A stretch of DNA of 32,000 nt from a virus, in the IMG/VR virus record IMGVR_UViG_3300045988_099134, positions 42,922 to 74,921 of that record; one strand, written 5' to 3'. The notes beneath the pieces are model-generated. The model made no database searches and was not told the origin of the DNA. It saw nothing but the letters and a program-made list of their open reading frames with translations. Position numbers and translations under genes: made by a program. Of the stretch, positions 1,356-32,000 are shown piece by piece (the first letter of the stretch is position 1; the number at the start of each line of letters is the position of its first letter).

Positions 1356-2979
1356 TGTTACGGAACAGTATTTTAAGGATGTAGAGGACTTAAAAGAAGC
1401 TAAAGCTATTAATAAGAGCCAAGAAGAAGTTGTTAGGTTGTTGAAGGGAGCTACCCCGAAGTATAAATTGAAGAATTGGACGAGAGGATATATCCCCGAA
1501 CATTACAAACGACTAAATATTTCTAAACAAGAAGCTTTTAGACTTGCGGTTATCGGTGCAAGAGAGGCTTTGACATATTTTCAAGTCAATCTTCACTTCA
1601 CACAAGCTATGTTGTTCGGTGCGGTTGTAGAGGGTTACGATACAATCTATGCAATTACTACTTCTCAGTATGGCAAAAGCTGGACTTTAGGAATGATTGC
1701 TATTTATCGTGCTTATAAAGGACATCAAGTACGAATTGCGGCCGCAACAGGAGAAACTGCTACTATCATCATGTCCAAAGTTATCGGACATTTACAAAAT
1801 GCAGACGAGTCTATTCAGAGTTCTGTATTAGATTCAGGAAACAAGATTGAAAAATTACAGACTTCTACTTCCAAGACTAAAATTTCCTTCAAGGGTGGAG
1901 GATGTGTAGAAATCGTTACGTTAGGTGGAAACAGTGTAGACCCGAAGAAAAACAACAACGCTATCGGTAAGGGTGGAGACTATATTATTGACGAAGCGGC
2001 CCAAGTAAGTGAAGATGCGTATGCCGAGATAGGACGAAGGGAATTTTCAAGTGTTGACGGTTCAAAAGAGCTTGAGATTGCTATTTCCAACCCCCACAAA
2101 CGAGGAGAGTTTTACGATTGTATGACAAACGAGAAATATCCCGAAGGAACATTAGTTGTTTGGATGGATGTACGTACTGCATACGAAGAAGATCGTATGA
2201 AAAGTGCATCTCAGATTCTAAATTCTCATTTTTACAAGAATAGAAGTACTTGCCAACGCTATTTAGTGTGCGAATTAGAGGAATTTTCAGACGAAAGTAT
2301 GTTCAAAACCATGACTCTAGACGACGATAAAGCAGATAATTCTTATAAAAAGCGTTTTTTCCTAGGTATTGACTCAGCTTATACAGGAAAAGACGGTATA
2401 GATGTTGCTTTATGCTCTCAAAACAGATACGGAAACTGTAAAATCGAGACAATTTACAATCTTAAAGAGGGTGTTTGGGTACAAGGAGTCACATCCGAGA
2501 AGATTATTGCCAAGATTGTTAAGATTATCGAGACATTAAACGTAAAATATGTTTGTGTTGACGTTGGATTCGGTACTTGGTTAACAGAAGGATTGTCAAA
2601 ATACTCGGATAAGCTAGGATTTATCCTTGAGGGTGTCAATTTCCAAGGAGGGCCAACAAAAACACGTATCAAGGCAAGACATTACAGTGCGGTATATGCA
2701 TTTAATCTAAGAGCGGAAATGTATTTAGACTTTCAGCAGCTAATGGACAGTAAGAAATTGACTTTCACAACGGAAGTCGCAAAAAGATTGAAGCCTGAAT
2801 TGCTTGCTACAAGGACTGTATCGAAGAACAATAAGAAGATAGCCATTATTCCTAAAGAGGAGATAAAACAACGCTTAGGACACTCTCCTGATGCCCTAGA
2901 TTCCTCAGTACTTTCTGTCCGCAGTTGTTTAATGTATAATCTAAGCAGTGAAATACTTGCGTATGCAGAGAACGATTAG
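1336..2979 (+). CDS. terL: terminase large subunit
   Basis: 547 aa. Walker A-like TSQYGKSWT, Walker B GGDYIIDEAAQV, and C-terminal nuclease-type acidic motifs LGIDSAYTGKDG and VCVDVGFG. The GTG start lies 9 nt after AGGAGG (1321-1326). Confidence 0.9.
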   Translation: MKKQTLSVTEQYFKDVEDLKEAKAINKSQEEVVRLLKGATPKYKLKNWTRGYIPEHYKRLNISKQEAFRLAVIGAREALTYFQVNLHFTQAMLFGAVVEGYDTIYAITTSQYGKSWTLGMIAIYRAYKGHQVRIAAATGETATIIMSKVIGHLQNADESIQSSVLDSGNKIEKLQTSTSKTKISFKGGGCVEIVTLGGNSVDPKKNNNAIGKGGDYIIDEAAQVSEDAYAEIGRREFSSVDGSKELEIAISNPHKRGEFYDCMTNEKYPEGTLVVWMDVRTAYEEDRMKSASQILNSHFYKNRSTCQRYLVCELEEFSDESMFKTMTLDDDKADNSYKKRFFLGIDSAYTGKDGIDVALCSQNRYGNCKIETIYNLKEGVWVQGVTSEKIIAKIVKIIETLNVKYVCVDVGFGTWLTEGLSKYSDKLGFILEGVNFQGGPTKTRIKARHYSAVYAFNLRAEMYLDFQQLMDSKKLTFTTEVAKRLKPELLATRTVSKNNKKIAIIPKEEIKQRLGHSPDALDSSVLSVRSCLMYNLSSEILAYAEND

Positions 2980-2990
2980 GAGGTGCTAAT

Positions 2991-4412
2991 TTGAGTCGAA
3001 GAACAAAGAAAAGACAAAAGGATAGAGTTAAACTAGCATCCAATACCTATGTGTCACCTAACATTTCGCACAATATTCACAGTTCTAATGCAGAAACCGA
3101 AGCCGAAAAGGTAATGGAAGCTATGTTAAACTGCAATTCAGAGTGCATCAACGGATTTATAAAGACAAACTTTAAGAATCAGTTTGATGAGATTGATTGG
3201 ATGATAGACAATCTACCAACGCTACCATATGTTATCGGTAAGGTTATTGACTTTATATTCTCAAACGGCATCACAACGGGTGATGAGAATTTAGACAAGA
3301 ATGTTCTTATGCCATTCCTTTACAGACACAATGTGCAAGGTGTTACAAACTATTCTGTACTTCAAAATGCTATTATGCAGTCCTTGTTGTACGGAAAATG
3401 CGGTATTCGTTGGCTAGACGAAGATAAAGGAATTGTTACAGAGAATTATCGTAATTATGTTTCCATTATGCGTGAAGATGATGAATATAAAGGCTTTAGA
3501 GTTCCTATCTGTTATGCTATGTCGGCAGACGATAAAGAACCTATCTCATTAGGAACAAAGGAAATCGACTTTGATGAAGTGTTATTCCTTAAAACAGGCA
3601 AATTAATGTCAAAAGACGGAACAATCATTGTAGAGATTCCTGATAATTTCTGCAATCTTAGAAATGGAACAGACAATGAGAACGGATTATCTTGTTTATT
3701 ACGTGATAAACAACGTCTAAAGCTATTAGGTGCGGTTTACGAGCGTTTGAACTACGATATTCAGTATGATGGGCCAGGACGTTTGATTTTTTGGCTAAAA
3801 GACGGATTTGCCAAGGGAGATACGATTGATTTATCGGCTTCCCAAGTTCTAGACGAATCATCAAGTTCTAAAGCAGACAGAGCCGACAAAGCAAGAATTG
3901 AAGCTAAACGTTTAGGCCAGGAAATCAGAAATTCAAAATCAGACAATGTAATCCTTGCAAGTTCTATTTTTGATAAGATGGATCACTTGCCTCGTGTTAC
4001 AAAAGGTACAGAGTTCTTAGAATACCTTCAAATGAAGGAAGGTTCTATTATTTGTCAGTGTTTCGGGCTTACTCCTGAATTAATTGGTTTAGGGGATGTA
4101 TCAGGAAACGTATCTATGGAAAGAATCATAGATAATGCCATGACAAATACAATCGTACCAATGCGAGAAAGGTTCGCCACTCAGATTTCTCCTATGTTAA
4201 GTGAGAAATTAGGTGTGCCAAAGGTTTATTTTGATAAATACGAATTGAAAGAACAACAAGACAAGTCTGCAAAGACATATAAATTGGCCTTGTCAGTTAC
4301 TCAAATCGTAGGTGCTATTGTCAACGGAGCAGAAGCGTTAGACAAGAGCACAAAGAATTACATGATGGAATCAGTTACTAGAATGATGGATTCTATCGAG
4401 AAAACGCTATAG
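2991..4412 (+). CDS. portal protein (by position and size)
   Basis: 473-aa ORF immediately after terL, with a TTG start after GGAGGTG. Size and order are typical of a portal, but I have no motif-level proof. Confidence 0.7.
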   Translation: MSRRTKKRQKDRVKLASNTYVSPNISHNIHSSNAETEAEKVMEAMLNCNSECINGFIKTNFKNQFDEIDWMIDNLPTLPYVIGKVIDFIFSNGITTGDENLDKNVLMPFLYRHNVQGVTNYSVLQNAIMQSLLYGKCGIRWLDEDKGIVTENYRNYVSIMREDDEYKGFRVPICYAMSADDKEPISLGTKEIDFDEVLFLKTGKLMSKDGTIIVEIPDNFCNLRNGTDNENGLSCLLRDKQRLKLLGAVYERLNYDIQYDGPGRLIFWLKDGFAKGDTIDLSASQVLDESSSSKADRADKARIEAKRLGQEIRNSKSDNVILASSIFDKMDHLPRVTKGTEFLEYLQMKEGSIICQCFGLTPELIGLGDVSGNVSMERIIDNAMTNTIVPMRERFATQISPMLSEKLGVPKVYFDKYELKEQQDKSAKTYKLALSVTQIVGAIVNGAEALDKSTKNYMMESVTRMMDSIEKTL

Positions 4413-9848: not shown

Positions 9849-11254
9849 TGTCTAACTGCAACATTAACAAAATTATTAGTGACAAATTAAGTGTCTCTAA
9901 ATTAACTAAAACTCAAGAAATTGATATTACTATCATGAGTGATATTGATTCTTGTTTAAAAATCAATACTCGTAAATTTGAAAAGATTACAGGTACTGCT
10001 AGTGCTTATACATCACGTACTATTGCACCTGATTTAATCAACGTTTGCGAATCATTTGGATGTAAAAATACAGGTACATTGTTCATTACTTCTAAAGAAA
10101 CAGATGCATTAGAAGGAGAAGGAAACAAAGTACACACAAGTGGTGCGGTATTTAAAGCGTTGAAAAATGCATTAGACTTTGCGGCAGGTGTTGTTTACTA
10201 CTACGTGAATGTTCCTCAAGCAGGTACTTACACAATCACAACAAAGATTTCAGATGTTTTAGATCATGAAATGGCAAATGCAGATGAGTATACAAGCACT
10301 TTAAAAGCAGATAAAGAAGGGCTCTACCCTGTACAGATTGACCTATCTACTGTTCCTACAAATGTAGTAGGAAAAGGATGGGAAGCAAGTACATCAGGTG
10401 TCCGTTTAAGCATTGAAGTAGCATTAACAGATAAATCAACAGATAGTATCTTGATTGGTCTTTCTTCAATTTCTTTCTTTGAAGAATTTGCAGACTTAGA
10501 TTCTAACAACGACATTAAAGTAAGCTGCTTATCAGGATTTGATGGTGACGACACTGTAGACCCTGTAGATACAAGTTGCTTTGACGATTCTTATGATGAT
10601 GATTCTGCTTCTATTGAGCGTTCATTTACAGGTACTCAATTAACATCTAACTACTTAACTATGAACCCATTCATTGGCAAGGGAGATAAATCTCAAGGCT
10701 TTATGATGCGTACTCAGGAAGTAGTTATTGAAGCAGATAAAGAACATCCTGAATATGGTTCAATCCATATTGCAGACCACTTTGTTGAAGAATGTGGATT
10801 TATCTATGCAGCATTGAGTGACCAATGCAATATTACAGATTCTACATTGAACCGAATCAACACTCCATTGTTGGCTAACTTAGATGAGTCTCAATACCAA
10901 GTATTGAACAGTAAAATCAATCCAAGCTTAGATATTGAAGGTTCAAAGATTTACTTCAACAAAAATTTAGTAGGTAAAACATTAAAGATTTCTTATCCAA
11001 TGACTGTTGATGTATTGCAACACTATGTAGCAAACAACGATAGCTTAAAGAATAAGAGAGCAAAAGTTACAATCACTCGTTATAGAAGTGATGGAACTGC
11101 GGAAGTATTTACTTACCACAATGCAAAAATCACTTCATTCCCAATGGGTATCCCTGATGACGGAGCGTTTGAATTTAGCTTAGCGTTCAAGAAAGATACT
11201 CGTGGAAACTGGTATGAAGTTTATGTAGTAAACAAAGCTAACGCTAATTTATAG
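9848..11254 (+). CDS. major tail protein, large form (by position)
   Basis: 468 aa, immediately upstream of the chaperone pair and the tape measure. No separate tube-sized gene follows, which argues against a sheath/tube (contractile) arrangement. Confidence 0.55.
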   Translation: MSNCNINKIISDKLSVSKLTKTQEIDITIMSDIDSCLKINTRKFEKITGTASAYTSRTIAPDLINVCESFGCKNTGTLFITSKETDALEGEGNKVHTSGAVFKALKNALDFAAGVVYYYVNVPQAGTYTITTKISDVLDHEMANADEYTSTLKADKEGLYPVQIDLSTVPTNVVGKGWEASTSGVRLSIEVALTDKSTDSILIGLSSISFFEEFADLDSNNDIKVSCLSGFDGDDTVDPVDTSCFDDSYDDDSASIERSFTGTQLTSNYLTMNPFIGKGDKSQGFMMRTQEVVIEADKEHPEYGSIHIADHFVEECGFIYAALSDQCNITDSTLNRINTPLLANLDESQYQVLNSKINPSLDIEGSKIYFNKNLVGKTLKISYPMTVDVLQHYVANNDSLKNKRAKVTITRYRSDGTAEVFTYHNAKITSFPMGIPDDGAFEFSLAFKKDTRGNWYEVYVVNKANANL

Positions 11255-11273
11255 AAATTGAGAGGCAAATGAG

Positions 11274-11984
11274 ATGGAAGAACAAAAGATTTTAGAACCA
11301 ACACAGTTAAATGCCATGATTGAAAAGTTAAAAGTAGCTCGTGAGGATGATACTCCTCACGCAGTCTATGGCAATGGTGGTGAAATTGCGGTTGTTGGTG
11401 ATGCAAATAAGACAGATGTTAAAACAATTGATATTGAAGTGAGTTTTAGATTCACTGAAAAAGAAATCGAAGAACATAAAATTGATGTTCCTGATAACGC
11501 TAAAAGGGTAGGGCAATATGTTATGTTCGATAAGAAGTTTGAAAATCTAACATTATCTCCTAGACAAGATATGAAGATGGTAGAAGCTTTAATCGAAGTA
11601 AAACCATTGCTATTGGATGCAGAACAAATCCTAGACCCATATAAAGAAAAATTCCAAGAAATCGAGGAATACTATGGTCACAAATTCATTGAAGGAAAAG
11701 ATGGAATCGTTACAACAGACACAGATGATGAAGAAGTGAGCAAAACTATGGTTCAGATTTATGAAGCGTATATGAATGAAGCAAACGAACAGATTTTCCA
11801 TTTATACGCTCAATCCTCTACAAATTTAGTTGATGGACTTTATAAAGTTGTTGCAATTTTCTTAGGATTAGATGAATTTTATGAAGATCACATGATGCAA
11901 TATTCAGTTTTAACTTGCATGATTAGCCTAATTATCAAATATCCTGAATTATTTAATGAGGTAGAAACAGTTTTTATCAAATAA
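11274..11984 (+). CDS. tail assembly chaperone (G-type product)
   Basis: 236 aa, acidic. It occupies the conserved slot between the major tail protein and the tape measure, and its 3' end is overlapped by an open -1 frame. Confidence 0.6.
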   Translation: MEEQKILEPTQLNAMIEKLKVAREDDTPHAVYGNGGEIAVVGDANKTDVKTIDIEVSFRFTEKEIEEHKIDVPDNAKRVGQYVMFDKKFENLTLSPRQDMKMVEALIEVKPLLLDAEQILDPYKEKFQEIEEYYGHKFIEGKDGIVTTDTDDEEVSKTMVQIYEAYMNEANEQIFHLYAQSSTNLVDGLYKVVAIFLGLDEFYEDHMMQYSVLTCMISLIIKYPELFNEVETVFIK

Positions 11985-12304: not shown

Positions 12305-15300
12305 AGTCGGTGCTAGGTTAGTCCTTGACATTAAGGATGCCGAAGCAAGAATAAAACAACTCGAAAAAGAGTTAAAAGAAATTGAAAAGGTAAAACTCAA
12401 ATTTGATGCTAACACCCAAGAATTAGAAAGAATTAAGGCAAGATTAGAAGAAATCAAAAAAGAAAAGGAAGCTTTAGAAAGACAAAAGCTTGCTCTGAAA
12501 GTAGATTTGGATAATCTAGCTAATTTCAAGAATCAATTATTGGATATTAAAGATGATATTAGTGAGCTTAAAAAAGAGTTATTAGCCTTGAGTAATAAAA
12601 AGCTTTCTATTGATATTGATTTAAAAGCTAATGCCAACGAAATTCATGATGTCATTAATGACATGACACTAGGTGAAAACGATAAAAGCGACAAGCTTAA
12701 AGACCTATACAGTGCACGTGAAGCTCTCAAATATGATATGCGAGAGGTTGGCATTGAAATTGATGAAGTACAAAAGAAAATTAACAATCTTAACAAAGAG
12801 AAGATAAAGATTGAAGCTAACATCAGTGAATTAAATGATGCTCAAAAATTGGTTGATGAGATTGATGATTCAATCGCAGATTTAGATAAAGAAAAAATAA
12901 AATTAGAAGCTGATTCTTCTAAGTTAGAAGATACAAATAAAAAGCTAGATGAAACAATCAAAAAAGAGAATGATGTAAGAAACACAAAGGCTGATATTGA
13001 GTCACAAGTTATCGGCTATCAAGATAGTTTGAATAAACTAAACAATCTTCAACAAGCTGCTAAAGCATTAAAATCAGCTAGTAAGATTACATTTGATGTT
13101 GGAAATAAGATGTCAAATCTAGGCTCTAGTATGTTGAACATTGCTAAGAATTTCCAAAACAATCCAATAGGAGATATTGGACGATTCTTAGTACAAGGTG
13201 TTGGATATTCTAGTTTGTATAGATTGGTTTCAGGTGCACAAAACGCAATGGGCGAAGCATTTTCAAACGGTGTTAAAAGATACGATACAATCAAAGTTGC
13301 GAAAAGAACATTGTCCACTGTAGTAGGTGATGTAGACGATTCTACAACGAAAATCCAAAAGATGATTGATAACCTAGATGAAAGCATTTTGGGCCTACCA
13401 ACCACTTTAGATGACGCTCTAAGCCATGTCACGAGATTTACTTCAATCAATCATGATTTAGATAGGTCTCAAAAGCTATTCTCGGCAATTAATGATTCCA
13501 TTTTGACATTCGGTGGTGATTCTGAGGGGGTAAACAATGCGGTTACTCAGTATTCTCAAATCATGGGTTCTAAAATGGATGCTCGTACATTGAGATCAAT
13601 GGAAGATGCAGGTATGACACCAGCCTTAACTGCTATTGCAAAGAAATTTAATATGTCATTTGCAGAGTTTAGAGAAGCATTTACAGGTTCAAATCCAACT
13701 ATTTCATTACAACAATTTGAAGATGCTCTGATTGAATTGGATGAAAAAGGTGGTGGTGGCCTAAATTCGTTGGCAACTATGGTTAAATCATCTGTAGCCA
13801 CAATCTCAAACGGTCTTGACTTAATCCCTAAGAGATTTAGTAAAGCCGAAGAAAAGTGGTTAGGTGCATTAGATGAGGTTTCAACGGAATTAACAGGAGC
13901 TACAATTTACGGAAATATCTATAAACTTTCTCAAAAAGTTGAAGGCTTAGGAGATATAGGAGCAAACTTCATTAGAAGCCATAAAAAAGAAATTGGCGAA
14001 GGCATAGACTTCATTAAAACGAAGTTCTCTGAATTATTGAGCGTTTTAAAAACGTTTAGTTTCAAAGATTTTGTTGGTGGATTTAAACAAGGATTAGATG
14101 ATTTCAAAGGAGCAATTGATTTCTTCAAGCCTCTTGTTAGCGGTCTATATAATTTTGCAAAAGATAAAATCACCGAAATGGGAGACGGAAGCTTTTCTAA
14201 AGGATTAGGACGTTTCGTATCAGACTACATCCAAATTGGTATTGGATTAAAGTATGCTGGTAAGTTAATGAAACTTGGAAGCGGTGGAATCAGTCTTTTA
14301 GGAGATTTATTAAACATTTCTTCAAAATTCAAAGGAAAAAGTTTCAATATTCCATTCCTAGGAAAATTAGGAAGTAAATTTAGTTCTATTAAAAATGTAT
14401 TCAAAAGTTCAGATGAGATTACTACTGCGACAAGTACTCCAAAAACTTTTGATGTAGAAGGATTTAAAAATAAATTATCTTCATTAGCTATCATAGCTGG
14501 TGGGGCAGGAACAATTATTCTTTATTGCAAAGCGATAAAGGAAATTGAAAAGAATGTTCCAAATGACATTACAACATTGCCTATGCGATTAACAAATTTG
14601 TTCTCTGTAATGGGATTGATGATGGGAGCTAACACACTTAATACAGCAGTTTCAAAAGCATTAGAGATGAACAATGCATTAACAGGATTAGCAATGATGA
14701 TTGGTCAAGGCGGAGCTTTATGGCTATTTGCAAAAGCTATGCAAGAGCTAGATAAAACTATGCCTGATGGATTCGATACATTCAATGATAAGTTATTAGG
14801 CTTATTTGAGTGCATTGGCTCTATGACACTTATTACAGGTATTCAAGGTGGTGCTGGTGTCCTAACGGGTGGAATCACTACATTGGCCCAAGTGCTAGGA
14901 ATGGTAACAACAACAGGACTAGCTGGTACGTTGATTGCTTGTGCTAAAGCTATGCAAGAAGTCGATAAGAATGTTCCTTCAAACACAAAAGGATTGAAAA
15001 AGAAAATCCAAGGAATTATGGATGTCATTGATATGTTTGAAGGTGAAGGAACACTTTCTTCTTGGTGGAGTCAAGTTATTAAAAGTTCTGAGTCTTTATG
15101 GAAGGACATGGAGACTTGGAATATCACTAGGATTTTAAAGAAACTTGTCACTATTGGAGAATCAATTTCAAAAGTACAAGGAATGAGTATTGATAGTAGT
15201 TCTTTCAACGATCAATTCAAAGATATTCAAGATGTAATCAAGAATATTAATGATTTTGAGTTTCCTACAGTTAGCACATCAAGTGCAACAAACATTGCGG

Positions 15301-25767: not shown

Positions 25768-27480
25768 ATGGGAGTTAGAATACAAGAATTGCCTGAAACA
25801 ACAGGTATTAACAAGGAAGATTTATTGATCGTTGAAGATGGACAAGGAACTAAAAAAGGTACTGTTCAACAGTTAGATGAAGCACTAGGAGTTAGTCAAC
25901 TAAAGGAAGATTTAATTAAACAACTTGAATTACAAGAATTTTATAATCAAAAAACAGTTAGAAGTGTGCAAGGCTATTATGATGCCGATTTAAAAGGTAT
26001 TGGAACGTTAGTATCAAAATTACCACTAATTATCACAAGCGTTGAAATTAATACAGTAATCAAAGGAACGGGAAGTGCTAAACTTGAATTACTTGATGAG
26101 AATAAAAATATTATTGCAACTTCAACAAGCACTTACACTAATAAATTAGTGTTTAACTTTAATGATTTGTATGTTGGAAATTATGATAAATTATGGATTC
26201 GAGTATCATCTGAAACATTATTATTTGCACGTGCTGAGTGCGATATTAATCGCATAATTATTGATACAAATGAAAATTATGCAACATACAATGTTAATGA
26301 TAATTGGAATTATAATAATCTATATAACTATCCATTACTATTTACATTAAACGGAAAAATTGGTAATAACAGTGTAATTGTTGGAACTAATGAAAAGTTT
26401 AACCGTATTATTGATGCAGTGCAGTATTGTAACACTAGACCTAATTATGTATGGAATATCTATATCAAAGAAGGAACTTATGATATTTACAATGAATTAG
26501 GCGGTTCAAGTTGGTATAGTGGTATCACAAGCGCCAAAGGAAATATGCAAGGTATATCACTAGCAGACAATGTGAATTTGATTGGATTAGGTAAAGTGAC
26601 ATTACAATTCAATCCATCAGATGATTTAGCCACAGAAAGTAATGTTCCTAATGTGTCAGTACTTGAATTAAGTGATGTCAATAACAAGATTGAAAATATT
26701 AAAATTGAATGTAGAAACTGTAGATATGGTATCCATGATGAAACAGATGGTGGAAAACCTAATTCAACTCGATATTTTAAAAATGTTGAAATTACGCACA
26801 ATGGTGTAGTTAGTGGCACATGGAACGCACCAGTTTCTTATGGCTGTGGAAGTTCAGATAATTCAAAATTTGAATATGTGGATTGCAAATTTAATAGCTG
26901 TTGGTTGGCGCACCAAAGCAATCAACAAACTACACCGCCTAACTTTATCGCAACTAATTGTACGTTTAATGGTGGTTCATATGCAATATCACTAAATACA
27001 AGTGGAACTTGTAAAGCTAATATTACGTTTAATAATTGTGAAATTAATTATATGGTTAGAGTGCTTGAAGATGCAGATATTTGGAGTATTTATGGTGGTG
27101 GTAATAATCTATTTAATTATGTTGTTATTGGTAATAATAAACTTAGTTCACAACCTTTTAAATTATATGATTTAACTAGAACATTTAAAAATGTTGGCAC
27201 TAGTAAAATTGTAAAAGGTAATGCAGTGCAAATTCACAATGAAGGTATCGCAAATGCTAATGATAGTAAACAAGTAATTGGAATTGCATTGAATGATGCA
27301 GAACAAAATACAGATGTTAGAGTTCAGCTAAAAGGATACTATGACTGTTATAGTGTTGCACCTTTTGGAAGCAATAATACATTATTAGGAGTTTCAAATG
27401 GAGCAATCGTAGCAAACAATGAAAATTACTTTGCTATTGGCGTTTATGTTGATGATATGCAAATGATTTACATTTACTAG
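25768..27480 (+). CDS. tailspike/receptor-binding protein with right-handed beta-helix (pectate-lyase-like) body
   Basis: 570 aa. The N-terminus MGVRIQELPETTGINKEDLLIVEDGQGTKKGTVQQL is a typical spike anchor. The body has NIYIKEGTYDI, GISLADNVNLIGLGKVTLQF and NIKIECRNCRYGIHDE, plus N-rich repeated rungs. Confidence 0.7.
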   Translation: MGVRIQELPETTGINKEDLLIVEDGQGTKKGTVQQLDEALGVSQLKEDLIKQLELQEFYNQKTVRSVQGYYDADLKGIGTLVSKLPLIITSVEINTVIKGTGSAKLELLDENKNIIATSTSTYTNKLVFNFNDLYVGNYDKLWIRVSSETLLFARAECDINRIIIDTNENYATYNVNDNWNYNNLYNYPLLFTLNGKIGNNSVIVGTNEKFNRIIDAVQYCNTRPNYVWNIYIKEGTYDIYNELGGSSWYSGITSAKGNMQGISLADNVNLIGLGKVTLQFNPSDDLATESNVPNVSVLELSDVNNKIENIKIECRNCRYGIHDETDGGKPNSTRYFKNVEITHNGVVSGTWNAPVSYGCGSSDNSKFEYVDCKFNSCWLAHQSNQQTTPPNFIATNCTFNGGSYAISLNTSGTCKANITFNNCEINYMVRVLEDADIWSIYGGGNNLFNYVVIGNNKLSSQPFKLYDLTRTFKNVGTSKIVKGNAVQIHNEGIANANDSKQVIGIALNDAEQNTDVRVQLKGYYDCYSVAPFGSNNTLLGVSNGAIVANNENYFAIGVYVDDMQMIYIY

Positions 27481-27573
27481 TTAACTAAATAAGAATTTAT
27501 TTAATTTGTTACTTGTGCTTGATTATTTTAAGCACGTGTAGTAAGTTTAACTTAGGAAAAATGCATAAAAAAA

Positions 27574-27610
27574 GAAGTTGGAATTGTCCGCTAAAACATC
27601 ATCCAACTTC
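27574..27610 (-). terminator. hairpin oriented as a minus-strand intrinsic terminator (or a recombinase/regulator site)
   Basis: GAAGTTGGA (27574-27582) and TCCAACTTC (27602-27610) form a perfect 9-bp inverted repeat with a 19-nt spacer. An A7 run (27567-27573) precedes it on the plus strand, which is a T7 tail on the minus strand. Confidence 0.4.
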
Positions 27611-27614
27611 AACC

Positions 27615-27644
27615 TTGATTAGGTCGTTTTTATTATACCATAAT
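27615..27644 (+). promoter_or_regulatory. candidate promoter for the recombinase gene
   Basis: TTGATT (27615-27620), an 18-nt spacer, then CATAAT (27639-27644), about 40 nt upstream of the ATG at 27686. Confidence 0.3.
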
Positions 27645-27685
27645 TTCGACCGTTGACTATATTTTTTATGCCAGGAGGAGAAATT

Positions 27686-28681
27686 ATGAAAGAACAATTT
27701 GTGAATGAATTTATTTCGTCTTTATCAGATGATTTTGATAAAGATATTTTAAGTGTATTGTTTAAGAAGTTAACTGTATTTGTTAACGGTTATGAAATAA
27801 AGCCTATTGAAACATCTGTAGCACTTTATACAAATTATATGCCTGAGTGCTATCAAACATACTTCGTAACAAGAAAGATTGAAGGAATGAGTATGAAGTC
27901 TTTGGAGATGTACGATCTTTACTTAAAAGATTTTTTTAGACAAGTACATAAGCCTATTAAAATGATTACTACAAACGATATTAGAGTTTATCTGTATAAA
28001 GTTCAGACTCAAAGAGGAATAAGCAACAGAAGTCTAGATGCTAGAAGAACTGTTATCAACGCTTTCTTTGAATGGTGTTGCAATGAAGAATATATAAATC
28101 GTAACCCATGTAGAAATATTAAGAAAATCAAGTATGAAGAAAAAGAACGCAAGCCATTATCATCCATAGAACTGGAAGAATTAAGAAATGCTTGTGTAAC
28201 ACTAAGAGATAAAGCTCTTTTTGAATTGTTGTATTCGACAGGGTGTCGTGTTTCAGAAGTTGTAAACTTAAATAAAGCAGATGTTAATTTTGAAACTAAA
28301 GAAGTTGTATTATTTGGTAAAGGCAATAAACATAGAATATCATACATAAATGCAAGAGCAGAGATTGCTTTAAAGAATTATCTTAATTCTAGAAATGATG
28401 ATAATAAAGCGTTGTTTGTTTCAGACAGAAAACCACATAAGAGATTATCAAAATTTGGAATCGAGAAAAGAATAGGACAACTTGGAGAATTAGCTGGAAT
28501 TGAACGTAGGATATTCCCTCACTTGATTAGACATACAACTGCTACAGATGGTTTGAATCGTGGCATGGGTGTTGAGGAAGTCCAAGCTATTTTAGGGCAT
28601 GAAAACATTGCTACAACAATGATTTATGCTAAAGTATCTAAGAACAATGTAAAATTACATCACACAAAATGTATTGTATAA
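27686..28681 (+). CDS. tyrosine site-specific recombinase (XerC/XerD-like phage integrase family)
   Basis: The ATG at 27686 lies 6 nt after AGGAGGAG; the ORF track start at 27653 is a TTG without an RBS. Catalytic signature residues are all visible: STGCRVSE (Arg), GKGNKHR (Lys), PHLIRHT (His-x-x-Arg), LGHENI (His) and TTMIYAKV (Tyr). There is an N-terminal SAM-like core-binding domain. Confidence 0.9.
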   Translation: MKEQFVNEFISSLSDDFDKDILSVLFKKLTVFVNGYEIKPIETSVALYTNYMPECYQTYFVTRKIEGMSMKSLEMYDLYLKDFFRQVHKPIKMITTNDIRVYLYKVQTQRGISNRSLDARRTVINAFFEWCCNEEYINRNPCRNIKKIKYEEKERKPLSSIELEELRNACVTLRDKALFELLYSTGCRVSEVVNLNKADVNFETKEVVLFGKGNKHRISYINARAEIALKNYLNSRNDDNKALFVSDRKPHKRLSKFGIEKRIGQLGELAGIERRIFPHLIRHTTATDGLNRGMGVEEVQAILGHENIATTMIYAKVSKNNVKLHHTKCIV

Positions 28682-28686
28682 GTTAT

Positions 28687-28723
28687 AGGACGTACTACAT
28701 AAAATGTACGTCCTTTTCTTTTC
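28687..28723 (+). terminator. intrinsic terminator after the recombinase gene
   Basis: AGGACGTAC (28687-28695) pairs with GTACGTCCT (28706-28714), the loop is 10 nt, and TTTCTTTTC follows. Confidence 0.75.
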
Positions 28724-28800
28724 ATTATATAATTGAGATGCCATAAAACAGTACCTTGGAAAATATGAGAGAGATGAAATATTTTTGGAGGTGTAAATTT

Positions 28801-29181
28801 ATGAATGTACAAGATTTTTTAACTTTATTACAGACTGCTGCTACTTTAGTTTGTGGTGGATTAGCTTTATATTTTAAATTCAGTACCAAAGCTAAAACTA
28901 AAGCAAAAGAAGTTCAAGAAGTGATTGCTAAAATTACTGCCCAAGCAGTTGTTTACATTAAAGAAGCTGAGGACAACTACAAAGATACAACTAATGCTGG
29001 TGGTAAAAAATTTGAAGAAGTTGTCGGCAAGCTTTATGATCTAGTGCCTGATGCATTGCATGGCATCATTACAAAAGAAATGATTAGTGAAATCGTTCAA
29101 AGTACTTTTGATGAAATTGAAGAATACGTTAAGATTCAATTAGATAATGGAATTGATAAAATCAACGTCAAAGGTGACTAA
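28801..29181 (+). CDS. holin, LL-H-like (N-terminal transmembrane helix plus helical cytoplasmic domain)
   Basis: The ATG at 28801 follows GGAGGTG (28787-28793); the ORF track start at 28756 is a TTG codon with no RBS. It has one transmembrane segment (LLQTAATLVCGGLALYF) followed by AQAVVYIKEAE...GGKKFEEVVGKLYDLVP...IITKEMISEIVQSTFDEI, the pattern I associate with Holin_LLH proteins. It lies upstream of the endolysin. Confidence 0.6.
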   Translation: MNVQDFLTLLQTAATLVCGGLALYFKFSTKAKTKAKEVQEVIAKITAQAVVYIKEAEDNYKDTTNAGGKKFEEVVGKLYDLVPDALHGIITKEMISEIVQSTFDEIEEYVKIQLDNGIDKINVKGD

Positions 29182-29582
29182 TGGGAAAAGTTATCACTAT
29201 TGATTTAGAATATGTTTTATGGCTTCTAGGTTTCATTGCTTCCGCTTGGGGAGTAGTAAAGATTATTAAAGAGCTAAAGAAACCTAATGACGATTTAAAA
29301 GAAACTGTTAGAAAACACGAAGAATGGTTAGCAAGAGACAATGAGAGAATAAAATCAATCGAAAGCTTAGTTATCACACAAGAAGGGATTAAGAAAGAAT
29401 TGAATGAACATTCTAGAATGTTAGGGGAACATGAGGAAAGATTAGAAGAAGATAAGCAACGTGGTAATTTGACATTAAAAGCAAATATCGCAATTATCAA
29501 CAATATGCTTTCTGAAAACGACAAAGATAAGCTCCAAGAAACTAGAGACGAGATTCAAGACTTTCTGCTAGATAAAAACTAA
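29181..29582 (+). CDS. membrane-anchored coiled-coil protein, lysis-cassette accessory
   Basis: 133 aa, with a TAATG overlap to the holin. It has an N-terminal transmembrane helix (YVLWLLGFIASAWGVV) followed by a charged coiled coil. Architecture only; family not recognised. Confidence 0.55.
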   Translation: MGKVITIDLEYVLWLLGFIASAWGVVKIIKELKKPNDDLKETVRKHEEWLARDNERIKSIESLVITQEGIKKELNEHSRMLGEHEERLEEDKQRGNLTLKANIAIINNMLSENDKDKLQETRDEIQDFLLDKN

Positions 29583-29595
29583 GGAGGAAAGAAAT

Positions 29596-29700
29596 ATGGA
29601 AGAAAAAGAAGTAAAATTTGAAGATTTATCAGAAGAAGCTCAATCAGAGTTATCAAATGGAAAAGAAGAAGGTGAAGAAGAATGTCATATTCAAGCTTAA
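29596..29700 (+). CDS. possible 34-aa acidic micro-ORF overlapping the endolysin start
   Basis: AAGGAGG (29581-29587) lies 8 nt before the ATG at 29596. Product MEEKEVKFEDLSEEAQSELSNGKEEGEEECHIQA. It overlaps the amidase start by 19 nt in another frame. Confidence 0.3.
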   Translation: MEEKEVKFEDLSEEAQSELSNGKEEGEEECHIQA

Positions 29701-30779
29701 CAAATAAATATATTCCCGCTAGCGCAGACAACTATATGCGAGGACGTGGTGGCTATAAAGTATGTAAAATTACACCACACCACATGGCGTGTCAGTGGAG
29801 TGCCGAAAGATGCGCTCAATCATTCCAAGTAAGCGGAAGAATGGCTAGTGCAAACTATTGCATTGGTTCAGACGGTACGATTGTTTCGAATGTAGACGAA
29901 GAAAACAGAGCGTGGACAAGTTCGAACTATTACAACGATTGCCAAGCTATCACAATTGAAGTTGCAAATGAAACGTGTGCGCCTAATTGGACTATCTCAA
30001 CTAAAGCATGGAATGCATTAGTAAATTTATGTGTTGATATTTGTAAGAGATACGGATTTAGATTAAATTATACAGGAAATGCGAATGGAAGTTTGACAGA
30101 GCATAGAATGTTTGCAAGTACAAGTTGCCCAGGCCCTTTCCTACACGATAGAATGCCTCAATTAGCACAAGAAGTAAATGCTAGATTAGATGGTCAGACT
30201 GTAGCACCAAGCGCTCCTAGCACTCCAAGCGCTCCAAGTGGTGAAAAGTATTCAGTCGGTACACCTATCTGCACAAATACATTAAGCGTAAACTGTTACG
30301 GAACTTCTAAAATCTTAAAAGGGGATTGGAACGGTTCAATTGGTAGAGTAATCAAAGGTGCTAAATATCCATATCGTGTTGATCGTAATGGAGTAGCTAT
30401 TGGATGGACAAATGATGCAGGTATCGATACAGACCCTCATACACCAGTAGGAACGACGCAATCAAGTAGTGAAGCTATCGACCAAATCTTGCATGAAGGC
30501 AGCTATGTTACATCTGTACATATGAAAATCGGCAATCAAGGCTTAAAGAAGATTGGTGATGATTTATGCTGCTACTTATCTCAATTAGGCGGTTGGTTTC
30601 CAATTCGTATGGTAGACAAAGTGCCAAATTCAGATGGATATAATGACAATGTATTGCACACCACAAATGCAGTTGTCTATGTAACTAGAATCAGAGTTGA
30701 TGCGGTTAATGTTCAAAAGAATATTGTTAAAATTGGCGGTATTTGGGTTGACCCAACACCATTAACAGAAATTGCGTAA
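29682..30779 (+). CDS. endolysin, N-acetylmuramoyl-L-alanine amidase (Amidase_2/PGRP type) with C-terminal wall-binding region
   Basis: 365 aa. Zn-ligand pattern: KITPHHMA (His), then TEHRMFASTSCPG (His-x7-Cys), plus ASANYCIGSDG and NRAWTSS. A Pro/Ser linker (APSAPSTPSAPSGE) is followed by about 180 aa whose family I did not recognise. RBS GAAGGTGA. Confidence 0.9.
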   Translation: MSYSSLTNKYIPASADNYMRGRGGYKVCKITPHHMACQWSAERCAQSFQVSGRMASANYCIGSDGTIVSNVDEENRAWTSSNYYNDCQAITIEVANETCAPNWTISTKAWNALVNLCVDICKRYGFRLNYTGNANGSLTEHRMFASTSCPGPFLHDRMPQLAQEVNARLDGQTVAPSAPSTPSAPSGEKYSVGTPICTNTLSVNCYGTSKILKGDWNGSIGRVIKGAKYPYRVDRNGVAIGWTNDAGIDTDPHTPVGTTQSSSEAIDQILHEGSYVTSVHMKIGNQGLKKIGDDLCCYLSQLGGWFPIRMVDKVPNSDGYNDNVLHTTNAVVYVTRIRVDAVNVQKNIVKIGGIWVDPTPLTEIA

Positions 30780-30904
30780 AGCACAAAAATAACACATATA
30801 AGTGTCAAAATTGTACAAAATGCGCAAAAATTACAATTAAATATCTATAAAAGCGTCATAATTAAAAAAATGACACAAATCCTTCAACTATTTTTTGTAT
30901 ACTT

Positions 30905-30937
30905 AGCCTATGATTAAGTTCATAGGCTCTTTTTTTA
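30905..30937 (+). terminator. intrinsic terminator of the lysis cassette
   Basis: AGCCTATGA (30905-30913) pairs with TCATAGGCT (30920-30928), the loop is 6 nt, and CTTTTTTT follows. Confidence 0.8.
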
Positions 30938-30983
30938 TGCTATTATTTTCATAGCTCATCTACTAGTGTAGAAAGAGTACCTT

Positions 30984-31017
30984 AGACCGTATGATGTTTG
31001 TACGGTCTTTGTTTTTT
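30984..31017 (+). terminator. second intrinsic terminator
   Basis: AGACCGTA (30984-30991) pairs with TACGGTCT (31001-31008), followed by TTGTTTTTT. Confidence 0.65.
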
Positions 31018-31027
31018 GTGTTATAAT
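30998..31027 (+). promoter_or_regulatory. promoter P1, extended -10
   Basis: TTGTAC (30998-31003), an 18-nt spacer, then TGtTATAAT (31019-27). It overlaps the 3' arm of the preceding terminator. Confidence 0.5.
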
Positions 31028-31095
31028 ATATGCACATAGATTAGCAGAGTGCACAATGCAACCAATATCATTCTATATTATTCTTATCTATACTA

Positions 31096-31104
31096 TGGTA
31101 TAAT
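31096..31104 (+). promoter_or_regulatory. promoter P2, extended -10
   Basis: TGgTATAAT. No good -35 element. Confidence 0.4.
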
Positions 31105-31110
31105 ATCTAT

Positions 31111-31208
31111 GCTTAGGGGAATACAATCGTATTCTATTTATCTCGTGTACCAATTATAGGAACAAGGAGAAACGAAACTGCTATGCATTTAGTTGTGTGG
31201 CAGTTTTT
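31111..31208 (+). ncRNA. candidate small RNA A (start approximate)
   Basis: P2 (or P1, giving about 175 nt) is followed by the hairpin GAATAC-aatc-GTATTC. The unit ends at the terminator CTGCTATGCA/TGTGTGGCAG (31178-31203) plus T5. There is no ORF with a credible RBS. Confidence 0.25.
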
Positions 31209-31212
31209 GCTA

Positions 31213-31221
31213 TGTTATAAT
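31213..31221 (+). promoter_or_regulatory. promoter P3, extended -10
   Basis: TGtTATAAT, immediately after terminator A. Confidence 0.4.
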
Positions 31222-31227
31222 AGCAAA

Positions 31228-31433
31228 GGCCAAAACATGAGAAATTCTAAGTGAACCATGTTAGCTTGATGCACAAATCCAAGTTAGGCATATGGATTTA
31301 TTAGTATTGATCTATAGTCATACCAAGCGTGGCTGATTGATATTATTTTTATGCAAGTCGACTACAAAGAAATATTATTTTCTTACCACTGAATAGAGTA
31401 CATTCTAGAAGTACTTGAAAGGTGGTTCTTTTT
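31228..31433 (+). ncRNA. candidate small RNA B (start approximate)
   Basis: P3 is followed by hairpins AACATG/CATGTT (31238-31262) and AAATCCA/TGGATTT. The unit ends at the composite hairpin ACCAC...AGTAC-attctagaa-GTACT...GTGGT (31385-31426) followed by TCTTTTT. Confidence 0.25.
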
Positions 31434-31453
31434 ATATAAAATTCATACTGATA

Positions 31454-31462
31454 TGATATAAT
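31454..31462 (+). promoter_or_regulatory. promoter P4, extended -10
   Basis: TGaTATAAT. Confidence 0.4.
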
Positions 31463-31468
31463 CATGTT

Positions 31469-31674
31469 GCTAGGAAAAGTAGAGTGATAAAGGCCCAAGC
31501 TCTCTTTGGTGTAGTGCAGATTGCAGACGTGCAATTGAATCTTAACATTTCTCTTTGTGGCACTAGCATAAACAACAACAAAATGTGACAATTGCTAAAA
31601 GCTCCCCTTTTTAGATACTGTCACCAAAACGATTCCATACCTCATCCACATCAGGTATGGTTTTTGTTTTTTTT
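31469..31674 (+). ncRNA. candidate small RNA C, about 200 nt (start approximate)
   Basis: It runs from P4 to a strong terminator: CCATACCT (31635-42) pairs with AGGTATGG (31653-60), followed by T5GT8. Internal helices are TGCTAG/CTAGCA (31467/31562), TTGCA-gacg-TGCAA (31521-34) and GTGACA/TGTCAC (31585/31619). The last helix encloses a CUCCCC loop. No plus-strand ORF is present. Confidence 0.35.
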
Positions 31675-31694
31675 AACAAATCTTAAAATTTATG

Positions 31695-31703
31695 TGCTAT
31701 ATT
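31695..31703 (+). promoter_or_regulatory. promoter P5, extended -10
   Basis: TGcTATATT. Confidence 0.35.
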
Positions 31704-31709
31704 ATTGAT

Positions 31710-31793
31710 GTGTTCTTCGTGGATGAACACACCCTTTCTAAGATAACTAAAACTTATGCAAAAGAGTCTCCTTACCAAGCGGGAGACTTTTTT
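31710..31793 (+). ncRNA. candidate small RNA D, about 85 nt (start approximate)
   Basis: A 5' hairpin GTGTTC/GAACAC (31710-31730) is followed by a single-stranded CACCCUUUCU-containing stretch. The terminator is AGTCTCC (31765-71) pairing with GGAGACT (31782-88) plus T6. Confidence 0.35.
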
Positions 31794-31832
31794 GTTTATA
31801 TATTATAAGGAAAGGAAACAATAATATGTTTT

Positions 31833-31862
31833 TGGCATAATGGCATAAAGTGCGTGGCATAA
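31833..31862 (+). repeat. three copies of TGGCATAA (two abutting, third 6 nt later)
   Basis: Copies are at 31833-40, 31841-48 and 31855-62. This is a candidate operator or iteron. Confidence 0.55.
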
Positions 31863-32000
31863 AACATGGAATATTTTTTTAGGTTCAATTAAATAAAATG
31901 TGGTCAAAAACGAGAAAATATGAGAACATAAAGTAAACTAGATGAATAAAAAATAAAGGAAAATAAAGAGCTAGAAACTTATAAATATCATTCAACAAAA

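Follow-up and report, generated by a model that had tools for sequence, protein, structure and literature searches.

The 32,000-nucleotide window analyzed here (positions 42,922 to 74,921 of the IMG/VR virus record IMGVR_UViG_3300045988_099134) covers the late region of a temperate phage, with all its long open reading frames (ORFs) on the plus strand. Downstream of the endolysin gene lies a 900-bp stretch that standard annotation leaves empty. In it, a first-pass annotation of this DNA had recognized an array of extended -10 promoters alternating with intrinsic terminators and had proposed a cluster of small regulatory RNA (sRNA) genes. Our analysis of the array and its relatives, over 200 contigs of phages and prophages, points in the same direction: the segment 31019-31800 most likely holds four independently transcribed non-coding RNA genes, or 'non-coding morons'. 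The promoter and terminator signals exist, occur far above chance expectation and are conserved along with unit bodies under apparent purifying selection; these bodies are non-coding and the units are exchangeable as cassettes. The predicted elements of the array are the following:

31019..31027, plus strand: P1, the distal promoter of unit A, with the extended -10 box TGTTATAAT (motif search)
31034..31110, plus strand: A1, which forms the 5' part of the long transcript of unit A, without a terminator of its own (fold z = +0.35, not above shuffles in structure; conserved in sequence)
31096..31104, plus strand: P2, the proximal promoter of unit A, with the extended -10 box TGGTATAAT (motif search)
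31111..31212, plus strand: unit A2 RNA, about 100 nt, with two hairpins and a terminator at 31175-31209 (fold z = -4.6)
31213..31221, plus strand: P3, the promoter of unit B, with the extended -10 box TGTTATAAT (motif search)
31228..31435, plus strand: unit B RNA, about 205 nt; its terminator, at 31385-31433, is an interrupted hairpin (fold z = -2.05)
31454..31462, plus strand: P4, the promoter of unit C, with the extended -10 box TGATATAAT (motif search)
31469..31676, plus strand: unit C RNA, about 205 nt, with a terminator at 31635-31674 (RNAalifold; fold z = -1.6)
31695..31703, plus strand: P5, the promoter of unit D, with the extended -10 box TGCTATATT (from the sequence)
31710..31800, plus strand: unit D RNA, about 89 nt, with a 5' hairpin at 31710-31730 and a terminator at 31760-31797 (fold z = -4.8)

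The phage group to which this locus belongs is recorded from metagenomes only. BLAST searches of the region against 50,697 GenBank phage records, in both near and distant modes, returned no match at the DNA level; matching lysin or downstream sequences were found in 79 IMG/VR contigs, one metagenome-assembled genome labeled 'uncultured Solobacterium sp.' and 63 human-gut metagenome contigs. The host is possibly a Solobacterium-like (Erysipelotrichaceae-like) Firmicute of the human gut. In three relatives with the phage form of the genome (L058, L002 and L008), the lysin is followed by an ORF-poor stretch and then by a plus-strand tyrosine integrase, beyond which lie a cI-like repressor on the minus strand and cro-like and antirepressor genes. 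Given this gene order, the array occupies the spacer between the lysin and the integrase.

The promoter boxes are the most conspicuous feature of the array. The motif TGNTATAAT occurs five times in the window, and four of these occurrences, all on the plus strand, fall within 444 bp (at 31019, 31096, 31213 and 31454); a further box, TGCTATATT, lies on the same strand at 31695-31703. In 5000 dinucleotide-preserving shuffles of 30780-32000 a perfect TGnTATAAT is expected 0.12 times on the plus strand, and at least three copies were seen in none of the 5000, while the minus strand of this segment has no extended -10 box at all. Motif counts and shuffles thus bear out the initial observation of four perfect TGnTATAAT elements and one TGcTATATT on the plus strand, the perfect ones being far above chance. 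The accompanying claim that the units are not repeats of each other also stands, with a repeat search recovering short junction repeats only. We predict that the boxes function as sigma-A-type extended -10 promoters, which have no recognizable -35 element.

The boxes are also retained in the relatives, in terms of unique variants per unit. P1 appears as TGCTATAAT, TGTTAAAAT or TGCTATAGT; P2 is TGGTATAAT in 28 of 30 variants and TGGTACAAT in the remaining two. P3 reads TGnTATAAT or TGnTATACT in 40 of 49 variants of unit B (n = C, T or A), the other nine being promoter-swap fusions carrying the promoter of unit A. P4 is TGnTATAAT in 84 of 86 variants, with the free base being A in 66, G in 8, C in 7 and T in 3, and the -35 region of unit C is represented by 17 different 12-mers among these 86. 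At P5, the TG and the TATATT are invariant in a 43-variant alignment (n = C, T or A); in a later set the box is TGCTATATT in 29 of 31 variants, with the TGT and TGA forms found in a divergent class. Accordingly, the promoter/terminator pairs, whose loss in relatives would by the earlier account have spoken against RNA genes, prove to be conserved, the boxes persisting where the free base and the upstream sequence differ.

As to the terminators, a consensus scan found six terminator-like sites in 29500-32000 against 1.0 expected. Folding and scans place hairpins followed by T-runs at 31175-31209, 31385-31433, 31635-31674 and 31760-31797, in agreement with the alternation of promoters and terminators that had first been noticed by eye. 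The terminator loops vary freely in the relatives, and the stems are either invariant or compatibly changed. For instance, the terminator loop of unit C occurs as CAUCCACAUC, AACACAUCC, UUCACAUCC and AUCACAUCC, and the A2 terminator stem has a different sequence in one class of relatives (L015, L046 and L004) with the pairing kept. Two further terminators lie on the lysin side:

30905..30936, plus strand: T0, the intrinsic terminator of the endolysin gene, a 9-bp stem then a T-run (scan), conserved in many lysin loci
30984..31017, plus strand: T1, a second terminator at the end of a mini-segment, X0 (30950-31016) (terminator scan; fold z = -4.6)

T0 and T1 close the lysin transcript. A sixth candidate box upstream of T1, TGCTATTAT (30938-30946, plus strand), is not conserved. 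As this box is retained in only about 13 of 48 variants and the conservation of X0 is no better than that of neutral positions, we take 30984-31017 as a second lysin-side terminator and not as a gene; X0 is probably not a separate gene. A similar revision applies within the array. The first-pass annotation had delineated five promoter units, of which four are well supported; the fifth is not a separate entity, since no terminator intervenes between P1 and P2, making them nested starts of one unit. Unit A is predicted to yield a product of about 178 nt when started at P1 and one of about 100 nt when started at P2.

Several of these RNAs show signs of conserved secondary structure. For unit C, RNAalifold recovered six helices from 45 sequences with a mean identity of 89%, in a layout comprising a closing stem, hairpins at 31481-31503 and 31519-31536, an A/C-rich linker and a hairpin at 31585-31624 that displays CUCCCC in its loop. 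Its stem cells are paired in 98.9% of cases, as opposed to 35-46% in controls whose 3' partners are shifted by 1-3 columns, and its covariation score lies above all 500 shuffles, with two pairs changed on both sides. When metagenome sequences are added, the stem pairs changed on both sides number three in unit C (87 variants), four in X0/T1 and two in A2, where pair 45-62 is G-C in 17 variants and A-U in 13. Compensatory base changes in homologues, which had been suggested as a check on the initial proposal, are hence present in X0, A2 and C. The stem cells of unit B are paired in 99.4% of cases across 49 variants and those of unit D in more than 99%. We also looked for complementarity between units of the kind expected of a sponge; none was prominent besides a predicted duplex of X0 (30954-31016) with A1 (31034-31110), which is stronger than in shuffled sequences (z about -4) and is probably an effect of AU-richness.

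The unit bodies are better conserved than the silent positions of the adjacent gene: identity in A2, B, C and D is 89-98% in genomes in which the third codon positions of the neighboring lysin are 73-89% identical, with unit B on its own reaching 91-98% in such relatives. Three of these illustrate the point. In L018 (lysin third positions 74%), B is 98% and C 90% identical; in L015 (74%), C is 93% identical; and in L008 (78%) the values are 93% for A2, 94% for B, 92% for C and 89% for D.

The units also behave as discrete cassettes. The borders of the BLAST-matched blocks coincide with the promoter/terminator junctions: 30780-30946, 30952-31006, 31007-31210 (A), 31211-31437 (B) and 31451-31931 (C, D and the left arm of the phage attachment site, attP). 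Four relatives (L003, L018, L009 and L007) lack exactly the unit A block, with 31006 joined to 31211. Unit A is bracketed by 17-nt direct repeats (31012-31028 and 31206-31222; 82% identical), each composed of a terminator tail and TGTTATAATA, which provide a plausible recombination route for cassette gain and loss. We suggest that the cassettes in general may be gained and lost by recombination at such short 'terminator tail + TGnTATAAT' repeats flanking the units. Across the loci, A1, A2, B, C and D occur in many presence/absence combinations, some of the absences being due to truncated loci, and there are outright fusions: L002 combines the unit A promoter and A1 with the body of unit B, and L105 the 5' end of unit A (A1) with the body of unit C. 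On a gut metagenome contig of 130 kb (L161, 34-894), the array (window 30951-32000) stands behind a different lysin, GH25 muramidase-like by eye, which implies that array and lysis cassette move separately. The array is found joined to two different attachment-site/integrase (att/int) modules as well. Finally, L015 and similar relatives have unrelated mini-units at the same place, each consisting of TGCTATAAT, a short stretch and a hairpin with a T-run.

The coding capacity of the array is minimal. The longest ORF on the plus strand of 30780-32000 has 38 codons or fewer. The minus strand has one 80-aa ORF (31349-31591) that spans a cassette border, and its portion in unit C (31462-31581) is intact in none of 46 relatives. 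No ORF of at least 20 aa on either strand is intact across the relatives of units A, C and D. A 23-aa ORF behind an AAGGAG in A2 has ACA or ACG in place of its ATG in all three closest relatives, and in L015 a stop interrupts a 34-aa ORF of unit C at codon 5. The ORFs that are still intact have no Shine-Dalgarno (SD) sequence, are 12-22 aa long and lie mostly in unit B, where they survive only because this unit is 90-98% identical. A comparison of eight small ORFs with Pfam and PHROG gave no family match. ORF scans and ORF decay in the relatives of A, C and D are thereby in accord with the original statement that the plus strand of the array holds no usable protein gene, and the alternative it had raised against itself, a decayed protein-coding gene, finds no support in the small ORFs, which are neither kept nor matched in Pfam or PHROG. 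A conserved small hydrophobic ORF with an antisense RNA, as expected of type I toxin-antitoxin systems, was not found either: a hydrophobic 16-aa ORF on the minus strand is intact in one of 34 relatives, and the lack of an extended -10 box on that strand leaves no obvious antisense partner.

Searches for known RNA families were similarly negative. The covariance-model scan that had been proposed for the region, conducted with Rfam 15 over the whole window, gave no match at gathering thresholds; a permissive scan of the region gave nothing but sub-threshold matches driven by terminators, the best of them scoring 27.9 bits, against a gathering score of 55, for a leader model aligned over a terminator only. 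A scan for tRNA and tmRNA found none. The resemblance of the TTTTAGA...CCAAAAC of unit C to a CRISPR repeat was considered as mimicry and rejected, as it is not conserved in the relatives.

Taken together, these features recall the morons, which, as reportedly defined by Hendrix, Juhala and colleagues in lambdoid phages, are autonomous promoter-terminator units lodged between two genes, absent in close relatives and often expressed from the prophage. The putative promoters are extended -10 boxes that occur above chance and are kept in relatives; a hairpin and a U-run close each unit; and unit A is present in some phages and precisely absent in close relatives, exactly as such inserts are. Unlike classical morons, the units have no protein-coding gene. 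In the absence of a conserved ORF or a family match, they are better described as 'non-coding morons' than as classical ones. On this evidence, we hold it fairly probable that most of the units are functional non-coding RNA genes, and that they would be transcribed, probably in the lysogen.

Several points weigh against this reading. The high identity of the units could partly reflect a recent horizontal spread of the block and not selection, for which reason we take the comparison between units and lysin as supportive but not decisive. Covariation is modest, the relatives being close (mean identity 88-89%); units B and D have no pair changed on both sides; and the fold z-scores of B (-2.05) and C (-1.6) are weak. 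The structural support is therefore real but modest. Searching 71 other lysin-linked loci with a covariance model of unit D recovered no distant homologue, which indicates that these families are narrow, and none of the units matches a described family in the Rfam scans. The same caution extends to the candidate target of unit D discussed below: its match is SD-like, and hence less surprising than that of a random 10-mer, and there is no co-variation with the seed, which in L002 is CAUCCUUUCU against an unchanged target, with the two still paired through G-U. The target therefore remains a lead.

The candidate function emerges from the C/U-rich stretches of units C and D, which the first-pass annotation had singled out as exposed. 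In the predicted minimum-energy folds this is so, with CUCCCC (31602-31607) in a hairpin loop of unit C and CACCCUUUCU (31730-31739) unpaired in unit D. The UCCCC loop motif of unit C is nearly invariant among its variants. Unit D has CCCUUUC as the core of CACCCUUUCU; 32 of 34 variants retain this core, the other two having single substitutions, and it stays the same even as the 5' hairpin and spacer differ between two classes. This near-invariance of unpaired C/U-rich motifs suggests anti-Shine-Dalgarno pairing. Units C and D would act in trans, with the UCCCC loop and CACCCUUUCU pairing with the G-rich ribosome-binding sites (RBSs) of host or phage mRNAs to block their translation; we regard this specific mechanism as tentative and somewhat doubtful. 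In addition, A2 has a purine-rich, SD-like stretch, AAGGAGAAACGAAAC (31164-31178), which is invariant even in a class that is otherwise about 80% identical, and which may serve as a decoy or as a purine-rich seed.

When every start region in the window, in L058 and in L002 was scanned for complements of at least 9 nt to the unit D motif, a single one emerged: AGAAAGGGUG, which matches perfectly over 10 nt and occupies -17 to -8 with respect to a gene of 62-67 aa located just after the antirepressor gene. The site is found in ten relatives (L058 at 11239-11443, L002 at 10866-11085, as well as L082, L090, L100, L106, L107, L113, L114 and L134). Pairing of unit D with the RBS of the integrase (AGAAAGAGGG) was also considered and rejected: the roughly 15 interrupted pairs seen by eye are not among the best duplexes of a sliding scan. 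As a separate observation, the segment CACCCUUUCUAAGAUA (31730-31745) of unit D resembles what we take to be the 3' end of Firmicute 16S rRNA and the start of the spacer (CACCUCCUUUCUAAGGAUA); if this likeness is true, unit D could be a general anti-Shine-Dalgarno mimic.

C-rich motifs of this type are a recurrent device of Gram-positive regulation. RsaE/RoxS, the UCCC loops of RNAIII and the pneumococcal csRNAs bind G-rich RBSs through C-rich motifs located in a loop or linker, and units C (in a loop) and D (in the linker between the 5' hairpin and the terminator) expose comparable conserved C/U-rich motifs. RsaE/RoxS and the csRNAs are chromosomal core-genome genes with dedicated regulators; the units, in contrast, are phage cargo with plain extended -10 promoters and a candidate target only. 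The Rfam models for RsaE and the csRNAs have no match to the units even in the permissive scan. Hence, the units may work like sRNAs of the RsaE/RoxS type but are not members of those families.

The position of the array in the genome is consistent with a role as cargo. It is preceded by the lysis cassette, for which the following features were recorded:

28756-29582, plus strand: two holin-sized ORFs preceding the endolysin
29682-30779, plus strand: the Amidase_2 endolysin, the last long ORF before the array

The last roughly 170 nt of the window (31826-32000) are, by their sequence, attP with integrase arm repeats and core, and not an RNA unit:

31833..31862, plus strand: three direct TGGCATAA repeats, likely arm-type sites of the P arm (from the sequence)
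31990..32000, plus strand: the start of the attP core, ATTCAACAAAA... (divergence of phage-form and prophage-form contigs)

Contigs in the phage form (L058 and L008) and in the prophage form (L006, L161, L177, L158, L188 and L179) are colinear through ATTCAACAAAA and about 5-12 further bases, after which they diverge, placing the predicted crossover point about 5-12 nt past the end of the window. Beyond the divergence, the phage form continues with arm repeats and the integrase, and the prophage form with the 3' part of a comGC-like pseudopilin gene. To the right of the core, L058 and L008 have TTGGCATGA and TTGGCATAA repeats (TTGGCATnA twice) that match the left arm. The integrase gene starts about 130 nt past the window end in relatives, and lies 300-400 nt downstream in L058, L002 and L008. 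The attachment site is thereby recognizable from its divergence point, its arm-type sites and the adjacent tyrosine integrase. Unit D ends about 30 nt before the arm repeats, and the array is immediately inside attR, the right attachment site of the prophage, in the classical cargo position. The earlier placement of the array downstream of the lysis cassette, where temperate phages carry cargo, is accordingly refined: at the right end of the prophage, it lies in the interval that separates the endolysin from attP/attR.

On the host side, the prophage-form contigs read ...NKGCEALLEIV...CPDHSKVVIVDGQAVSQ*, followed by comGD/E/F-like genes (L161 at 2080-3510; also L188, L179, L158 and L177). The sequence after attR codes for the C-terminal part of ComGC only, with no start codon supplied by the phage, and the lysogen thus probably has a split comGC. 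Such a split has been reported for the pneumococcal PPH100 prophages, in a study that also mentions the csRNAs (PMC8637289). Directly next to unit D, at 31808-31840, an SD-like AAGGAAAGGAAA and an ATG open a four-codon ORF (MFLA*) overlapping the integrase arm repeats; this segment is missing from many relatives, in the other att class is the start of an unrelated ORF of 18 codons, and is probably not a gene.

An attP at about 31931, where five contigs lose homology, was considered and rejected, as L087 and L196 indicate that this point is a mosaic junction with the second att/int module. This module is found with the same C and D units in L015 (8055-8842), L196 (147-935, minus strand), L035, L018 and L087. 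In L196 its host junction lies just upstream of a gene for a 236-aa BI-1/YccA-like membrane protein, and L087 has a segment of about 85 nt of the second module in the phage form, followed by TTGGCATGA. In L003 (8090-8203, the same as L112 at 14205-14318), an ORF starting MEKAFKYRIYPNREQRILLAKTFGCTRFVYNHYL occurs directly after the BI-1-type flank. We take its start to resemble the N-terminus of TnpB of the IS200/IS605 family; if that identity is true, an insertion sequence has landed next to the attachment site of the second module.

The proximity of attP and of the integrase opens the way to cis-acting explanations. Foremost among the alternatives, and in our estimate unlikely, is that the array is a control region in which the terminators insulate attP and the integrase, or the host comG genes, the promoters provide low outward transcription and the short RNAs are by-products. 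That every promoter and terminator is directed towards attP and the integrase, that two terminators already stand before the array and that in the lysogen it faces the truncated comGC and comGD-F would all be accounted for in this way. However, the bodies, including their unpaired stretches, are conserved like the first and second codon positions of the lysin, which an insulator would not need. Moreover, the cassettes are shared by two unrelated att/int modules and by different lysins, their number varies freely, and there are relatives with a 320-bp spacer and a single terminator, implying that insulation needs no array.

A bolder version of the RNA gene interpretation, which we consider quite unlikely in its full form, is that the array constitutes a toolbox of exchangeable RNA cassettes, with anti-Shine-Dalgarno RNAs acting as an RNA-only immunity or host-control system. 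Prophages of the group would exchange the cassettes through recombination at the common 'terminator tail + TGnTATAAT' junctions, and the whole would be a protein-free lysogenic-conversion module that evolves combinatorially. Here, unit D would silence the small early gene near the antirepressor in the resident phage or in an incoming related one, and the other units would retune host genes, the split comG competence operon being one candidate. The small antisense RNAs of phage immunity regions, sar of P22 and c4 of P1 and P7, are among the closest known systems, as these RNAs block RBSs in the early antirepressor region and the seed of unit D complements the RBS of the gene following the antirepressor, a candidate target. 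Unlike them, unit D is not encoded in or next to its target in the immunity region but at the opposite end of the prophage, and its match is short, SD-like and a lead only. A second P22 RNA in this comparison, sas, is listed in PMC12197685.

We consider it very unlikely that the units are cis-regulatory leaders, namely riboswitch-like or antitermination attenuators gating read-through into the integrase in the circular phage genome. Unit D does adjoin the arm repeats of attP, the integrase follows attP in the relatives, units B and C have the typical length of leaders (about 200 nt) and a leader model gave a weak sub-threshold Rfam match; but this match is carried by the terminator hairpin only, some 40 kb separate the units from the integrase gene in the lysogen, the units accompany different integrases, and four leaders in a row without an intervening gene would be unprecedented. 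The conserved bodies and the persistence of the cassettes with different lysins are not accounted for by leaders either. No alternative antiterminator pairing was identified, though there was no systematic search for one.

Still less credence can be given to non-functional mosaic debris, that is, recombination scars and decayed genes that look promoter-like as they are AT-rich. The region is indeed AT-rich (29-35% GC) and highly mosaic, and TATAAT by itself shows no significant enrichment (4 copies for 1.9 expected). Yet the complete extended -10 motif exceeds expectation about 30-fold and keeps to a single strand, the boxes are retained while neighboring bases change, the units exceed the synonymous-like positions of the neighboring gene in conservation, and the substitutions in their stems keep the pairing. 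Finally, very small proteins or type I toxin-antitoxin pairs are exceedingly improbable and largely refuted: despite the strong SD-like AAGGAG at 31164-31169 in A2, which in the window is followed 13 nt later by an ATG, and several ORFs of 12-19 aa in unit B that are intact in most relatives, the ATG of A2 is lost in the three closest relatives, the ORFs of unit B are SD-less, the small ORFs searched have no Pfam or PHROG match, no ORF of at least 20 aa is intact across the relatives of A, C and D, and the minus strand has no box.

Returning to the four predicted RNA genes, their closest parallels are found among prophages of other Firmicutes. Spr RNAs are situated near the lysis/conversion end of staphylococcal prophages. 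As with these, the units are short RNAs of a temperate phage, each with a promoter and an intrinsic terminator of its own; SprY and the Spr RNAs act by base pairing, which for the units is a prediction. Unlike them, the units show no similarity to SprY/Spr in sequence or by covariance models, are arranged as four genes head-to-tail without a protein gene, are shuffled as cassettes, belong to a phage of an Erysipelotrichaceae-like host and are predictions from sequence. SprY itself is a trans-acting RNA of about 125 nt from the Staphylococcus aureus prophage phi12 that titrates RNAIII, and it is one of several established base-pairing sRNAs borne by prophages, another example being StxS (PMC12197685). 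What is unusual in the present case is thus neither the prophage sRNA as such nor the C-rich anti-Shine-Dalgarno seed, both of which are already known, but the dense head-to-tail array without a protein gene together with its combinatorial reshuffling.

To our knowledge, hardly any work has addressed the regulatory RNAs that phages of gut Firmicutes carry. If transcribed, the array would add four new sRNA families in a prophage group that is common in the human gut (63 matching human-gut metagenome contigs). It would also mean that lysogenic-conversion cargo can consist of RNA alone, in cassettes that recombine at promoter/terminator borders. The predictions are directly testable, having defined ends, seed motifs and one candidate target in the phage. 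Furthermore, as the prophage splits a comGC-like gene, the lysogen would be a useful system for asking how prophage RNAs, or the insertion itself, reshape host physiology.

Upstream of the lysis cassette, we also noticed a gene for a XerC/D-like tyrosine recombinase (27653-28681, plus strand; Pfam Phage_integrase, E = 8e-38, with a SAM-like N-terminal domain) between the tail genes and the holin. It falls within a variable block: 25897-28702 is replaced in L002 and L058, and 25918-27477 in L008. This recombinase is a second one besides the attP-linked integrase, and could represent an inserted element or control a tail-fiber switch.

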